Source: an uncultured Monoglobus sp. (GTDB lineage Bacteria > Bacillota > Clostridia > Monoglobales > Monoglobaceae). Taken from it: a stretch of 64,000 nt of DNA. The position numbers and the translations under genes are program-made. Location: positions 12,750 through 76,749 of the forward strand of contig CANQMT010000009.1 of the NCBI GenBank assembly GCA_947625055.1. Direction: 5' to 3'. The notes beneath the pieces were generated by a model. That model searched no databases. It saw only the letters and a program-made list of their open reading frames with translations, and was not told the DNA's origin. Below, in pieces: positions 10,607 to 45,092 of the stretch (position 1 is its first letter; the number at the start of each line of letters is the position of its first letter).

Positions 10607-11809
10607 TTATTTGTCGTCAAGCGCCGCGCAGCCGGGCAGCACCTTGCCCTCAAGCAGCTCCATTGAAGCGCCGCCGCCGGTCGAGATGTGCGTCATCTTG
10701 TCGCCGAAGCCCAAGGTGTTGATCGCTGCCGCGCTGTCGCCGCCGCCGATGATCGTCGTGGCGTCGGTGTCGGCCAGAGCCTGAGCGACAGCCACTGTGC
10801 CCGCGGCCAGAATCGGGTTCTCGAACACGCCCATAGGGCCGTTCCAGACAACCGTCTTGGCTGTCTTTACGGTGTCCGCGAACAGCGCGCGGGTCTTTTC
10901 GCCTATGTCAAGGCCCATTTTGTCGGCGGGGATTTTATTCGAGGGAACGGTCTCGATCTCGATCTCAGCGTCGATCGGGTTCGGGAAATCGGACGTTATA
11001 ACCGTGTCAATCGGGAGCTGGAGGGTCTTGCCGAGCTTTTCGGCCTTTTCGATCATATCCTTGCAGTAGCCGATCTTGTCCTCGTCAACCAGCGATGTTC
11101 CGACCTCATAGCCCTTGGCCTTGAGGAAGGTGTACGCCATGCCGCCGCCGATGATAAGTGTGTCGCACTTCTCAAGCAGAGTCGAGATAACGTTCAGCTT
11201 ATCCGATACCTTCGCGCCGCCCAGGATAGCCACCAGAGGACGAACGGGATTGTCGATCGCGTTGCCCACGAAGTCGATTTCTTTAGCCATAAGGTAGCCC
11301 GAAACGCAGGGGCTTAAATACTCGGTAACGCCGACCGTCGAGCAGTGCGCTCTGTGGGCGCTGCCGAACGCGTCGTTAACATAGGCCTCGGCCAGCGACG
11401 CAAGCTCTTTGCTGAAGTTTTCCTCGTTCTTTGTCTCCTCGGCCCTGAAGCGGGTGTTCTGGAGCAGGACCACGTCGCCGTCGCTCATATCGGCGACCGC
11501 GGCCTTTGCGTTCTCGCCCACAACGTTGTCGTCGTTCGCGAAAACAACGGGCTTGCCGAGCTTCTCGGAAAGCGACACCGCCACGGGAGCCAGCGAAAGC
11601 GACTCAACGACCTGTCCCTTGGGCTTGCCCATGTGCGAGCACAGGATAACCTTCGCGCCGTCGCCGATGAGTTTTTTGATCGTGGGCAGGGCGCCGTTTA
11701 TGCGGGTCTCGTCCGTGATCTTGCCGTCCTTGATCGGCACGTTGAAGTCGCAGCGGACAAGGACTTTTTTGCCCTTCAGATTAACGTCATCAACAGTTTT
11801 TTTGTTCAT
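10607..11809 (-). CDS. pgk: Phosphoglycerate kinase
   Basis: [42 protein letters not shown] and HISTGGGAS. Confidence 0.98.
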
Positions 11810-11893
11810 AGGATTACCTCCGATATATTATATTGATAATTAATTATTTTCGTTTAATAAACTCGGTTCTGCGGAGCTTTTTCCGCAACTTTA

Positions 11894-11922
11894 ATTTTAC
11901 CCCATTGTTTAAAATTTATCAA
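11894..11922 (-). promoter_or_regulatory. Sigma-A-like promoter of pgk-tpiA-gpmI
   Basis: Minus strand TTGATA, 17 bp, TAAAAT. Confidence 0.6.
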
Positions 11923-11983
11923 GGGGTTTTTACCAAAAAATCACATTAAATTTAGACAAACAGAGACGTTTATTTTGTTAATA

Positions 11984-12024
11984 TGTCAATTGACAATATA
12001 CGGGATATGTTATAGTATATAACA
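11984..12024 (+). promoter_or_regulatory. Promoter of the ECF S-component gene with two overlapping palindromes
   Basis: TTGACA (11990-95), 17 bp, TAGTAT. TGTCAATTGACA overlaps the -35 and TGTTATA-GTA-TATAACA overlaps the -10. Confidence 0.55.
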
Positions 12025-12059
12025 CATATTGCGGTTTTGTAAAAAAGGAGTGTTATATT

Positions 12060-12611
12060 TTGAACAGTAAGCTTAAAACAAAAGACCTCGTGATCTCCGC
12101 GCTGCTTATCGCGATCGGGATCATGATCCCCATGATATTCACGGGTCCGCCGTTCCGTATAGTGGTCGGCCCGTATTCGGCGACGCTTATGGCCCATGTG
12201 CCGGTGATACTCGCCATGTTTATCTCGCCGTGGACGGCTGTGTTTACCGCGGTCGGCACGACGATCGGATTTTTTTTCACGGCTCCGCTCGTGGTGGCGG
12301 TCAGAGCCGCCTCGCATATCCTGTTCGCGCTGCTGGGCGCGTATATGATAAAGCGCGGAACGAACCTTGTTCTGACCTGCGTATCAACCGGCGCGGTACA
12401 CGCGGTTGTCGAGGGAATAGTGGTCCTGCTGTTTTTCGCGGGAGGACTCTCATCGAGCGAGACCTATTCGGCCATGGCCATGATGTGGATAACCGTCGCC
12501 GGAACCTTCGCGCACCACATTGTTGACTTTATCATAGCCTACATAGTGGCCGCGGCGCTCCGCCGTGCGAAAATGATGCCCGAGCTTCCTCCTGTTTGGG
12601 GCAGGAAATAA
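12060..12611 (+). CDS. ECF transporter S component, NiaX-like (probable niacin uptake)
   Basis: KTKDLVISALLIAIGIMIP...SATLMAHVPVILAMFISP...RAASH resembles streptococcal NiaX as I recall it. About six TM segments. Substrate is inferred. Confidence 0.7.
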   Translation: MNSKLKTKDLVISALLIAIGIMIPMIFTGPPFRIVVGPYSATLMAHVPVILAMFISPWTAVFTAVGTTIGFFFTAPLVVAVRAASHILFALLGAYMIKRGTNLVLTCVSTGAVHAVVEGIVVLLFFAGGLSSSETYSAMAMMWITVAGTFAHHIVDFIIAYIVAAALRRAKMMPELPPVWGRK

Positions 12612-12706
12612 TTCGGTTTTTTGAAAAAATGAAAAATGTTTAAAATTTTTCAAAAATTTTTTAAAAAAGGCTTGCATTTTATATAATTATAATATATAAT
12701 ATAAAT

Positions 12707-12855
12707 AATCCTTGCGGAAGGATCAATTTCCGCATCTCCGCTTAGCAGCGCGCGAGGCGGAGAGTTGAGTTTTGTTAATTGCTTTACAGCAATTAAAGTT
12801 TTTCATATAATCCATTCACCTAAGAAAGTAGCGGCGCTTCGGCGCCGCTATTTTC
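12707..12855 (+). ncRNA. Candidate small RNA A (stand-alone, structured, anti-SD/anti-AUG motif)
   Basis: TTGCAT (12672-77)-17-TATAAT (12695-700). Hairpins TGCGGAA/TTCCGCA, TCTCCGC/GCGGAGA and TTAATTGCT/AGCAATTAA. Terminator TAGCGGCGC-TTCG-GCGCCGCTA-TTTT (12829-54). No plus-strand ORF. Confidence 0.7.
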
Positions 12856-12887
12856 ATGTCTGAAAAATTATGTAATTGTTTTGTTAC

Positions 12888-12916
12888 TTGAAATTTTTAG
12901 CGAATTATGGTATTAT
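12888..12916 (+). promoter_or_regulatory. Promoter of the small-peptide mRNA
   Basis: TTGAAA (12888-93), 17 bp, TATTAT (12911-16), with an extended TGn motif. Confidence 0.75.
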
Positions 12917-13053
12917 ATTTACAGACGCTTTGGCGTTTACACTAAAGGGTATTTTGAGCGGTTAGCCATCTCCTATTTCTTTTTGGAAAGGAGGTGACCT
13001 CCCGATTTTGCCTTGAGTTTTTCTCAAGAGCTTATTGAAAGGAGGGATTGCTA

Positions 13054-13128
13054 ATGCTTAGAACGATTTTAAAAATAATCGTCGCTGTCGTGATATTTTT
13101 CATAATAGTAAGCACAAAAGCAATATGA
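13054..13128 (+). CDS. 24-aa hydrophobic peptide MLRTILKIIVAVVIFFIIVSTKAI, putative type I toxin (absent from the ORF track)
   Basis: Strong SD GAAAGGAGGG (13037-46), a single TM-like core flanked by basic residues, its own promoter and terminator, and a convergent antisense unit. Confidence 0.78.
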   Translation: MLRTILKIIVAVVIFFIIVSTKAI

Positions 13129-13242
13129 CCGCCCCTGAGCTAAAGTAGCGGTCATATTATTGTGACAATTAAAACTTTGGCTAACCGTTTAACGGTTCCC
13201 TTTTGTGCGATTGGGAATCGCTTTTCAGCGATTCCTTTTCGT
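13113..13242 (-). ncRNA. Putative type I antitoxin antisense RNA
   Basis: Consensus minus-strand promoter TTGACA (13277-72)-17-TATAAT (13254-49). Terminator stem AATATGACCGC/GCGGTCATATT (13122-32/13148-58) followed by GCTTTT. It overlaps the peptide stop codon and 3' UTR. Confidence 0.75.
13214..13240 (+). terminator. Terminator of the small-peptide mRNA
   Basis: GGAATCGCT-TTTC-AGCGATTCC-TTTTC. Confidence 0.8.
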
Positions 13243-13326
13243 ATTTATATTATATATTATTTTTTTGCGTTTGTCAAGTGATTTTCTTGTATCAAACATA
13301 GGTATTAGTGATTAGTAACTAGGGAC

Positions 13327-13652
13327 TAGGGCGGGACGTCGAGGGCGCCGTCCCCTACGACCATGGTGCGCAAAACGCCGTAGGCCGTAGGTGCGTCCGG
13401 ATCCGCGGAGCGGGTGCGGGGGCACTTCCGTGTTTCATTTCCACGAATAAACGAGGCCACAAATCATTAACGTGAGCGGACATGGCCGGACGACCTCGGT
13501 CGCCCGAAAGGGGAACCGCGCATACAAGAAACCCCTCTCAGTCGCCTTCGGCGCCAGCTCTCCCCAAGGGGCGAGCCGGGACGCCGGGGTCGTCGTCCCC
13601 TACGACCAAAGTACGCAAAACACCGTAGGTGCGGATATTATCCGCCCGTTTG
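13327..13652. repeat. Cluster of GTAG-type REP-like palindromes
   Basis: GCGGGACGTCGAGGGCGCCGTCCCCTAC, GGGACGCCGGGGTCGTCGTCCCCTAC and GTAGGTGCGGATATTATCCGCCCG. The same units recur at 57.78-58.01 kb. Confidence 0.8.
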
Positions 13653-24756: not shown

Positions 24757-25506
24757 ATGAAAAATAAAATTTTTAAAGGTATTGCGATCCTCTGCGCGCT
24801 GGCCTGCGCCTTGTCGGTCGCGCAGATCATAAGGATCCAATATCAATATAAGCAGGGTGAAAAAGAGTACGCCGATCTGGCGCTCAATCTGGTAACATTG
24901 TCGGCGGCCGATGATTTCACGGCCCCCGGCGATGAGATCGGAGCCCCTATAGACGTTAACTTCGAGATGCTCAGCCAAATGAACGCCGAGGCGGTCGGCT
25001 GGCTTTACAGCCCGGGAACGCCGATAAACTATCCGGTCGTCCGCAGCAGCGATAATTCATATTATCTCAAGCATCTGTATAACGACCAGAAAAATTCATC
25101 CGGCGCGATATTTATGGACGCGCTGAACGATCCGGACATGAGCGATATCAACACGGTCATCTACGGCCACAACATGAAAAACGGCTCGATGTTCGCGTCG
25201 CTCCAGAACTATTCCGACCCCGCGTATCTGCGCGAGCATCCCGTGATCTATTACATGAACGCGCAGCACGACTACAGAATAGACATTTTCGCGTGCTATC
25301 CCGAGGCTGCGGCCTCCGAGACTTACACCATAAACTTTGACTCGGCCGATACTTACGCGGCCTATCTGCAGAGAGTTTGGAGCAAGTCGGAGATCTCGGC
25401 TGACGTGCCGATGACGACCGACGACAATATAGTCACTCTCGTGACCTGCACCGGATACAGCAATGACAGATACGTCGTTCTCGGCAAGATAACGCAGATC
25501 AGCTAA
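24757..25506 (+). CDS. srtB: Class B sortase
   Basis: N-terminal TM, INYPVV, AIFMD, NTVIYGHNMKNGSMF, TLVTC and the catalytic Arg in DRYVV. Confidence 0.93.
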   Translation: MKNKIFKGIAILCALACALSVAQIIRIQYQYKQGEKEYADLALNLVTLSAADDFTAPGDEIGAPIDVNFEMLSQMNAEAVGWLYSPGTPINYPVVRSSDNSYYLKHLYNDQKNSSGAIFMDALNDPDMSDINTVIYGHNMKNGSMFASLQNYSDPAYLREHPVIYYMNAQHDYRIDIFACYPEAAASETYTINFDSADTYAAYLQRVWSKSEISADVPMTTDDNIVTLVTCTGYSNDRYVVLGKITQIS

Positions 25507-44758: not shown

Positions 44759-44999
44759 CCGTATTCCTCCTTGTATTTTATATGGTTTCCCCATTGTTTT
44801 CTTATACAAAAAAATATTTCCGCCTTTATTTCCCCGGAGTTTTATTTCGCCGTGTTTCGGCAAAATGCGCTAATCCGCGCTGCAATCGTAATGATATGGA
44901 TTTTGTTGTTGAAAACGCACAAAAAACATTGATATTATTTGCACAATATCAACAAAGTTTTCTATTGAAATATTTTCGGAAATGTTGTATTATATATGC

Positions 45000-45092
45000 A
45001 TACCACAACTAAACAATCTTTTTTTCATTTCCTTCTGCCCGTAAGGGCAGAACACTCCCGACCGAGGTAGCAATATCTCGGTCTTTCTTTTT
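45000..45092 (+). ncRNA. Candidate small RNA B (anti-SD/anti-AUG motif, two GNRA hairpins)
   Basis: TTGAAA (44965-70)-17-TATTAT (44988-93). TTCTGCCC-GTAA-GGGCAGAA hairpin. Terminator GACCGAGGTA-GCAA-TATCTCGGTC-TTTCTTTTT. Confidence 0.62.

Follow-up and report, generated by a model that had tools for sequence, protein, structure and literature searches.

Positions 12672-12855 of the window, by which we mean the whole 64,000-nucleotide stretch of DNA from an uncultured Monoglobus species that was analysed, contain a sigma-A-type promoter, three hairpins, an unpaired stretch of 26-30 nt and a terminator with a UUCG loop (Table 1). The promoter, hairpins and terminator are present just as a first-pass annotation of this DNA had described them. 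The TTGCAT/TATAAT promoter is preceded by an A/T-rich tract and is missing from the listing of a consensus scan because its -35 element fits only three of the six positions. From this promoter we infer a transcription start near 12707, which gives in this genome a small RNA (sRNA) of about 149 nt (12707-12855, plus strand). When 12703-12855 was folded, a free energy of -62.5 kcal/mol was obtained (z = -6.96), and none of 200 shuffled sequences was as stable.

The sequence of the unpaired stretch (12796-12821) is AAGTTTTTCATATAATCCATTCACCT; read as the reverse complement, AGGTGAATGGATTATATGAAAAACTT, it consists of a Shine-Dalgarno (SD) sequence, an 8-nt spacer, an AUG start codon and the codons AAA AAC. 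The mean predicted probability of being unpaired is 0.80 in this seed stretch vs 0.33 in the remainder of the RNA, which bears out the earlier description of an unpaired segment antisense to SD, spacer, AUG and a Lys codon.

Table 1. Features of the sRNA locus, in coordinates of the window
Feature	Position	Strand	Description
Sigma-A-type promoter	12672..12700	+	-35 TTGCAT (12672-12677), 17-nt spacer, -10 TATAAT (12695-12700); read from the sequence
Hairpin 1	12713..12734	+	Variable 5' domain; sequence differs among homologues, hairpin present in each fold
Hairpin 2	12735..12763	+	UCUCCGC...GCGGAGA; apex of variable length, with indels that are not multiples of three in the alignment
Hairpin 3	12775..12796	+	UUAAUUGCU-UUAC-AGCAAUUAA; nearly sequence-invariant
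Single-stranded seed UAAAGUUUUUCAUAUAAUCCAUUCACCUAAG	12793..12823	+	Antisense of SD-spacer-AUG-AAA-AAC; 12796-12818 invariant in homologues
Intrinsic terminator	12824..12855	+	14-bp stem, UUCG loop, AUUUUC tail
Mechanical ORF of 27-30 aa, MKNFNCCKAINK...	12723..12815	-	Judged non-coding

Distribution and Conservation

BLAST searches recovered the locus from all 16 other Monoglobus genomes and from one other genus. A covariance model built from 18 sequences was then used to search genomes of the order. Exactly one copy of the sRNA was found in each of the Monoglobus (17/17) and Ca. Roslinia (2/2) genomes, and the remaining 132 genomes sampled in the order gave no homologue. Exact matches to the core also came from Monoglobus, mostly from rabbit, chicken and human gut MAGs, and from Ca. 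Roslinia. Two exact-core matches outside the family, in Dokdonia and in Bacteroidales, were without the hairpin and the terminator and were set aside as chance matches. Judged by the genomes searched, the sRNA is restricted to Monoglobus and Ca. Roslinia. A metagenome scan anchored on hairpin 3 gave 101 matches; the seed was present in only eight of them, all variants already known from the genomes.

Two blocks are invariant in the 18 aligned homologues: GTTAAT...ATTAAAG of hairpin 3 and AAGTTTTTCATATAATCCATTCA (12796-12818). The TTTTTCAT/anti-SD segment is the best-conserved part of the locus, while sequence identity drops to about 75%, or alignment fails, in the 5' hairpins, terminator and flanks. 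The homologues range from 124 to 176 nt and combine a variable 5' domain with a fixed 3' module. A TTGnnn-17-TATAAT pair lies at the equivalent aligned position in 13 of 17 homologues, 100-120 nt 5' of the core. Moreover, in homologues whose ends could be set, the seed is predicted to be unpaired with a probability of 0.68-0.92 (vs about 0.3 elsewhere in the RNA). In the predicted folds the locus has the conserved and accessible seed that is expected of a trans-acting base-pairing sRNA.

Conservation extends to the structure. The RNAalifold consensus retains hairpin 3 and the terminator, and 11 of its 20 pairs show compensatory changes, in which both sides are altered and the pair is kept in at least one sequence. 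In the terminator stem, 9 of 12 RNAalifold pairs stay paired through two-sided changes. Hairpin 3 is formed by UUAAUACC/GGUAUUAA in G006 and G002 vs UUAAUUGC/GCAAUUAA elsewhere, with two pairs changed on both sides, and the length of its loop differs by 1-2 nt between genomes. The T-rich tail of the terminator was found on the plus strand in all genomes and is absent from the minus strand in G006 and G002. The sequence invariance of hairpin 3 has no base-pairing explanation.

Coding Potential and Classification

The locus is best described as a plus-strand RNA gene because an indel in the loop of hairpin 3 breaks the ORFs on both strands. The first-pass annotation had reported no sense ORF. 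A 32-aa frame starting with TTG does exist on the plus strand (12765-12863), but it has no SD, and the 1-nt indel breaks it in G013, G011 and G010. The same indel frameshifts the minus-strand ORF, which was judged unconserved because the alignment gives it 27 aa in this genome but only 11 in G004 and 7 in G013. With its own promoter, a Rho-independent terminator and no conserved ORF, the sequence has the features of an independent transcription unit.

A competing reading is a minus-strand gene for a peptide of 27-30 aa (MKNFNCCKAINK...) that starts at AGGTGA-N8-ATG. Its SD and spacing are good and its frame is open in the source genome. However, the frame closes after 11 aa in G004 and after 7 aa in G013, and beyond codon 12 it is unalignable, with indels that are not triplets. 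The changes in G006 and G002 spare the RNA stem yet alter 4 of 11 residues, and in these two genomes the terminator tail is T-rich on the plus strand only. No conserved minus-strand promoter was found. We regard a peptide gene as extremely improbable. The first-pass annotation had named minus-strand-only expression with a translated 27-aa ORF, or an anti-SD segment that is not conserved, as the findings that would speak against an sRNA; in fact the ORF is unconserved and the segment invariant.

Other assignments were considered and rejected. The stretch 12783-12811 resembles a promoter (TTTACA-17-TATAAT, score 11/12) and could be read as a DNA operator or an internal promoter. A dimeric DNA operator is excluded because the loop of hairpin 3 varies in length by 1-2 nt, and the stem covaries; the transcript of an internal promoter at this position would be the terminator alone. 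A type I antitoxin or cis-antisense RNA was rejected on the grounds that the opposite-strand ORF is unconserved and that the genome contains no perfect complement of the seed except the sRNA's own opposite strand.

The suggestion that the RNA might belong to a catalogued Clostridiales motif did not hold up. Rfam 15 gave no match at the gathering threshold anywhere in the 64-kb window, and it includes RsaE, SR1 and clostridial and Bacillus sRNAs. At E <= 10 over 11800-13500, only chance matches far below threshold were seen; the best one on the element was SpF25 (23.5 bits vs 48 required). Full-text literature searches found no description of a small RNA, a regulatory RNA or bacterial transcriptome work for Monoglobus. 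As judged from these searches, the sRNA is a new, previously uncatalogued family.

Genomic Setting and Absence of hfq

In nine genomes the sRNA gene lies between a gene for a 183-aa membrane protein (no Pfam match) and a DUF4330 gene. Just downstream in this window is a type I toxin-antitoxin-like locus of 390 bp (12888-13277), a separate insertion that relatives are without. A different arrangement was found in G012, a single-contig genome that is 99% complete, and in G006. Here the module starts 8-20 nt past the stop codon of an operon of VTC and DUF4956 genes, no -10 box was found, and the module would be a 3'-UTR RNA. The start of the DUF4956 gene pairs with the seed at -13.4 kcal/mol in G012 and -5.4 kcal/mol in G006. 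A cis-acting 3'-UTR element directed at the upstream gene's own start was rejected, the duplex with the 183-aa gene being -9.3 kcal/mol, which is the median (63rd percentile, eight genomes).

One reading dispenses with base pairing altogether. It takes hairpin 3 and the AU-rich tail to be a module that binds a protein or stabilises a 3' end, located in every genome at the 3' terminus of the upstream mRNA, and the antisense look of the seed to be the fossil of an inverted gene start. It is favoured by the 3'-terminal position of the module in G012 and G006, by the lack of any terminator between the 183-aa gene and the sRNA in this window, and by the invariant sequence of hairpin 3, which pairing does not require. 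However, the promoter is dedicated and positionally conserved in most genomes, and a fossil would not remain invariant with flanks down to about 75% identity. The median value for the upstream gene and the complementarity beyond chance to two independent target classes, described below, are further points against it. We consider such a module very unlikely.

The source genome (2.21 Mb, 99.2% complete) gave no match to the Hfq profile PF17209, which did match control genomes. The first-pass annotation had noted only that hfq is missing from its usual position after miaA; by this profile it is absent from the entire genome. With PF17209 missing, any sRNA of this species has to do without Hfq, and assignment to the Hfq-dependent sRNAs, a class that calls for the presence of hfq, was rejected.

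Complementarity to Start Regions of SLH Surface-Protein Genes

Targets were sought with RNAduplex, seeded with 7-mers, on both strands of the genome, using the 34-nt seed region and, as a control, 18 dinucleotide-shuffled seeds. Start regions were taken as -35..+21 around 1989 crudely predicted genes. The background duplex energy over these genes was -10.5 +/- 3.35 kcal/mol, and the 109 starts encoding MKK or MKN averaged -13.9 kcal/mol. The first-ranked start region, at -25.2 kcal/mol, belongs to an SLH protein on contig C43 (G000:C43:2922).

This protein is a member of a family of cell-surface proteins of about 560 aa that begin MKKFKKIIS..., and the presence of SLH domains was confirmed. 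A total of 27 members from 11 genomes were collected, and 26 start regions could be extracted. All 26 pair with the seed at -16.5 to -29.4 kcal/mol (mean -20.5), and each lies within the top 4.7% of the 1989 start regions of the source genome. The difference from the MKK/MKN starts is significant (Mann-Whitney p = 3e-11), a value inflated by the relatedness of the members. The members being related, their complementarity does not amount to 26 independent observations. The closest matches to the 20-mer target were found at SLH-family start codons in G011 (19/20 bases) and G010 (18/20), with duplexes of -29.4 and -28.0 kcal/mol. A near-perfect complement of the seed in G012 lies in AT-rich non-coding DNA.

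The first-pass annotation had proposed a wider role, the repression of many MKK/MKN mRNAs at once, and had singled out three genes, at 24757, 59245 and 61084. These do start ATGAAAAA after GGAGG. As targets they are mediocre, with duplexes of -12.4, -16.3 and -12.7 kcal/mol at the 28th, 5th and 25th percentiles. An enrichment of exported proteins among the best start-region matches, for which it had also suggested looking, was found: among the top 20-80 matches, 50-55% have signal-peptide-like N-termini vs 19% overall. A sequence made of an anti-SD, CAU and U5 matches many exported-protein start regions by construction.

These data bear on the possibility that the sRNA is a promiscuous translational brake on many exported-protein mRNAs that start AUG-AAA-AA after a strong SD, with no favoured family. 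Besides the enrichment of signal-peptide-like N-termini, 20-mers with at most three mismatches to the perfect target are about 4.6 times commoner than the reversed control across 17 genomes, most of them at ATGAAAAA starts, and genomes without the SLH family keep the seed unchanged all the same. Against such a brake, most start-region duplexes, and the genome-wide duplex energies apart from a single leader (see below), fall within the range of the shuffled seeds, which also tells against simultaneous control of many MKK/MKN mRNAs. The MKK/MKN starts average only -13.9 kcal/mol, the three named genes rank no better than the 5th-28th percentile, and the enrichment follows in part from the UUUUUCAU motif itself. 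A brake with no favoured family is unlikely in our judgement.

The SLH family was found to be missing, at E <= 1e-30, from six Monoglobus genomes including G012. The seed is invariant there, and therefore at least one further conserved target would exist. The origin of the seed may be connected with the family. The minus-strand pseudo-start MKNFN... resembles the family start MKNFKKI..., and because of this likeness an inverted copy of an SLH-family gene start suggests itself as the source of the seed. The minus-strand ORF is probably the fossil of the copied gene start, and complementarity to the SLH family could partly reflect this descent.

A Predicted Leader RNA That Is Complementary to the Seed

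The best non-self site in the genome was found outside the start regions, on the minus strand of contig C7 (G000:C7), with a duplex of -30.9 kcal/mol. The best values of the 18 shuffled seeds were -21.6 to -27.3 kcal/mol (average -24.5), so this pairing lies about 4 SD beyond them. The next-best genomic sites (-27.3, -26.3 and onwards) are inside the shuffle range, and this is the only site beyond chance within one genome.

The site coincides with the 5'-terminal ~30 nt of a transcript whose predicted promoter, GGGAAC-N16-TCGTCA, has in our reading the AAC/CGT pattern that ECF sigma factors typically use. In the alignment of leaders this ECF-type motif is conserved and a sigma-A -35 element is not. 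In the genus the motif counted 66 vs 13 for its reversed control. A further copy, on C16, is flanked by an ECF sigma gene and the gene for its zf-HC2 anti-sigma factor. The leader is structured, 115-180 nt long, and ends in a conserved GGGUCG followed by U6GU4 about 45 nt 5' of a gene for a 940-aa protein with three SLH domains. No Rfam family matched it.

Nine genomes have the leader in front of the orthologous gene, and there it gives duplexes of -22 to -31 kcal/mol with the seed; shuffled leader 5' segments gave -8 to -12 kcal/mol in the eight genomes tested. The duplex comprises 25-27 bp, among them G-U pairs, and is interrupted by a 2-nt bulge. The complementary region matches the sRNA's unpaired stretch to its very borders and, on the other RNA, takes in the leader's first ~30 nt and no more. 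Departures from the perfect complement, and substitutions between species, are mostly A/G opposite U. The orthologue in G012 has a leader with no complementarity to the seed, and BLAST found no leader in about six genomes that keep the sRNA.

Thermodynamic folding of the nine leaders showed that the 5' segment can also pair within the leader, at -19 to -24 kcal/mol vs -22 to -31 kcal/mol for the sRNA duplex, which is thus predicted to be the more stable of the two. In five of the nine, its best internal partner is the upstream arm of the hairpin adjoining the U tract. G016, G004, G007 and G014, the remaining four, have as partner a CGGCC segment 46-75 nt upstream that is able to pair with GGGUCG across an inserted hairpin. 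The arms partly resemble the seed: G013 has CCAUUCG, and in G010 GUUUUUCAC immediately precedes the arm. Terminator-type pairing appeared beside the U tract in the predicted folds once the leader's 30 5'-terminal nucleotides were held unpaired. The terminator of the G000 leader is weak (best hairpin by the U tract -7.7 kcal/mol). From these folds the 5' end of the leader looks like the anti-terminator of an attenuator.

Two other protein genes behind ECF-type promoters have good start-region matches among the 1989, a lipoprotein gene on C6 (-22.6 kcal/mol, rank 2) and a secreted-protein gene on C5 (-19.2 kcal/mol, rank about 23). Over five ECF-type-promoter transcripts the empirical p values were 0.0005, 0.017, 0.11, 0.42 and 0.81, with good sites in only two or three of the five; the anti-sigma and pyrG-upstream transcripts (0.42 and 0.81) have none. 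A regulon-wide tie of the sRNA to the ECF-type promoter is only suggestive on these sequences.

The strength of the leader match raises the possibility that the main partner of the sRNA is itself an RNA. The sRNA and the terminated leader of ~115-180 nt would then work against each other as an sRNA and its sponge and thereby adjust an envelope-stress regulon, with the start-region complementarity being secondary or inherited. The leader is the sole statistically outstanding partner within one genome and is conserved in nine, and the complementarity fits the unpaired stretch of one RNA and the 5' end of the other exactly. The promoter motif beside the ECF sigma and anti-sigma genes, and before the two exported-protein genes just named, is consistent with this pairing of RNAs. 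Yet the pairing is missing in G012, about six sRNA-bearing genomes have no leader by BLAST, two of the ECF-type transcripts are without a site, and in G010 and G011 the SLH-family match beats the leader match. We find a sponge pair as the main function distinctly unlikely.

Proposed Mode of Action

Taken together, complementarity that is conserved for the SLH starts (11 genomes) and for the leader (nine genomes) exceeds chance in the modelled duplexes, as predicted for a trans-acting RNA. Of the repressor first proposed for this locus, the sRNA gene and its antisense segment stand, while the targets narrow to one SLH family and one ECF-driven leader. We consider it reasonably probable that 12707-12855 (plus strand) encodes a trans-acting, Hfq-independent base-pairing sRNA that is transcribed from its own sigma-A promoter and represses SLH surface-protein genes.

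The working part of this sRNA would be the unpaired stretch of 26-30 nt between hairpin 3 and the terminator. By pairing with the translation-initiation regions of the ~560-aa SLH paralogues it would block binding of the 30S subunit and lower synthesis of these proteins. The same stretch may pair with the first ~30 nt of the ECF-driven leader upstream of the 940-aa SLH gene. The leader's 5' segment would otherwise pair with the upstream arm of the terminator, and binding of the sRNA would free the terminator and cause an early stop of transcription. Alternatively, the terminated leader would titrate the sRNA. We infer the expression of the sRNA, the direction of regulation and both mechanisms from sequence and predicted folds.

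A more ambitious model joins these parts. One sRNA acting in trans would capture the 5' anti-terminator of the ECF leader and occlude the ribosome-binding sites of the SLH family, and the leader would in turn sponge the sRNA, such that a switch between a housekeeping sRNA and a stress leader sets the SLH repertoire at the cell surface of a keystone pectin-degrading genus of the gut. We offer this combined model tentatively and think it rather doubtful as a whole.

Comparison With Known Systems

Monoglobus lives in the human and animal gut as a specialist in pectin degradation; SLH-anchored surface proteins are reported to carry much of the machinery that M. pectinilyticus displays. If the proposed role is true, the sRNA would be the first sRNA regulator in the Monoglobus group, with a concrete target set, and would add to the examples of riboregulation in bacteria that have no Hfq. 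Should the leader interaction hold as well, it would be an uncommon example of a trans-encoded sRNA that chooses between anti-terminator and terminator, and in this Gram-positive anaerobe an envelope-stress regulon under an ECF sigma factor would be connected with control by an sRNA.

The nearest functional parallels are RoxS/RsaE and FsrA of Bacillus and Staphylococcus, which act independently of Hfq and occlude the SD. Like the Monoglobus sRNA they are trans-encoded, have their own promoter and intrinsic terminator and carry a conserved unpaired anti-SD seed; Hfq-free action is predicted for the Monoglobus RNA. There is no similarity in sequence or covariance model between them. The Monoglobus seed is AU-rich, contains UCACCU and spans SD, spacer and AUG contiguously, in contrast to the short C-rich motifs of RoxS/RsaE and FsrA. 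The predicted targets are surface proteins, whereas RoxS/RsaE and FsrA act on redox or iron metabolism.

In its predicted lowering of exported or envelope proteins and its putative link to an ECF-sigma regulon, the sRNA is similar to MicA, RybB and MicL of E. coli, which depend on sigma-E, and to CpxQ, which is derived from a 3' UTR. CpxQ and MicL moreover share a 3'-UTR location with the Monoglobus module of some genomes. However, the E. coli RNAs are stress-induced and need Hfq. In Monoglobus the ECF-type promoter belongs to the target, the sRNA gene has one of housekeeping type, and the source genome is without hfq.

For the leader, the proposed logic is that of the antisense RNAs of plasmids pT181 (RNAI/II) and pIP501/pAMbeta1 (RNAIII), in which the antisense RNA binds the 5' pre-emptor of the nascent leader and the terminator arm is freed. 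Those RNAs are cis-encoded, fully complementary and control plasmid copy number. In contrast, the Monoglobus sRNA is chromosomal, trans-encoded and imperfectly complementary, and its attenuation is predicted only. Extended complementarity of one regulatory RNA to the seed of another is also found in the sponges RosA-RoxS/FsrA (B. subtilis), SroC-GcvB and 3'ETS-leuZ. The known sponges are free-standing or processed spacer RNAs, whereas the Monoglobus partner is a 5' leader with a putative attenuator.

Predicted partners of the small RNA

The start region of a 23-aa ORF, MKQFERMCSLCMKTDLRKAPKRR, is complementary to the small RNA seed, with a predicted pairing energy of -19.4 kcal/mol, and the ORF is the same in four Monoglobus genomes. 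The SLH family, whose genes are predicted targets, has 27 members of about 560 aa across 11 genomes and is frequently arranged in tandem arrays. These genes have in common a conserved 5'-UTR box, CTAATCACTACGTTGRAAGGA, immediately upstream of the start codon, which may be a second cis-element. A larger SLH surface protein, of 940 aa, is encoded downstream of a structured, conserved leader (L056) of 115-180 nt that was found in nine Monoglobus genomes and had no match in Rfam. The leader contains a conserved element composed of GGGUCG and a U-tract, and modeling places a putative anti-terminator at its 5' terminus.

ECF-type promoter motifs

Leader L056 is preceded by an ECF-type promoter (GGGAAC-N16-TCGTCA). 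At a locus encoding an ECF sigma factor and an anti-sigma factor, the GGGAAC...TCGTC motif lies within the sigma gene at its 3' end, immediately before the anti-sigma gene, and this sigma factor is likely the cognate factor for the motif. The most strongly conserved copy, GGGAACCCAATCAAAGCTTTTGTCGTCA, occurs in almost every Monoglobus genome and is followed by a short hairpin, with pyrG about 230 nt downstream. The transcript from this copy upstream of pyrG showed no complementarity to the small RNA.

Features considered alongside the small RNA (G000, source genome; other G numbers, other Monoglobus genomes; C, contig; L, locus)
Feature	Location	Strand	Remarks
Structured leader L056	G000:C7:84648-84913	minus	outside window
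ECF sigma gene, then zf-HC2-type anti-sigma gene	G000:C16:47514-49400		outside window
ECF-type promoter motif copy GGGAACCCAATCAAAGCTTTTGTCGTCA	G000:C10:50199-50460		outside window
SLH family members	G000:C43:447, C43:2922, C44:2711, C24:214		orthologues in 10 other genomes
23-aa ORF MKQFERMCSLCMKTDLRKAPKRR	L202, L205, L207, L211 (G007, G014, G008, G004)		
Hairpin-seed-terminator module, conserved	L014 (G012:C1:~774100); L016 (G006:C13:~19300)		
Second promoter-to-terminator unit	window 44965-45092		contains CUUUUUUUCAUUUCCUUC; read from sequence
Type I toxin-antitoxin-like insertion	window 12888-13277		

Genomic context and other small units

At L014 and L016, the hairpin-seed-terminator module is located immediately after the stop codon that ends a VTC-domain and DUF4956 operon, and the equivalent of hairpin 2 falls within the final codons of the coding sequence. 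In the second, putative promoter-to-terminator unit, termed small RNA B in the first-pass annotation, the spacing from anti-SD to anti-AUG seems shorter than a typical start region would require. The insertion at 12888-13277 is absent from relatives at the corresponding site. It resembles a type I toxin-antitoxin system, and contains a hydrophobic 26-aa ORF (13035-13115), MLRTILKIIVAVVIFFIIVSTKAI, with a strong SD, and a convergent promoter with a perfect TTGACA-17-TATAAT (13277-13249).
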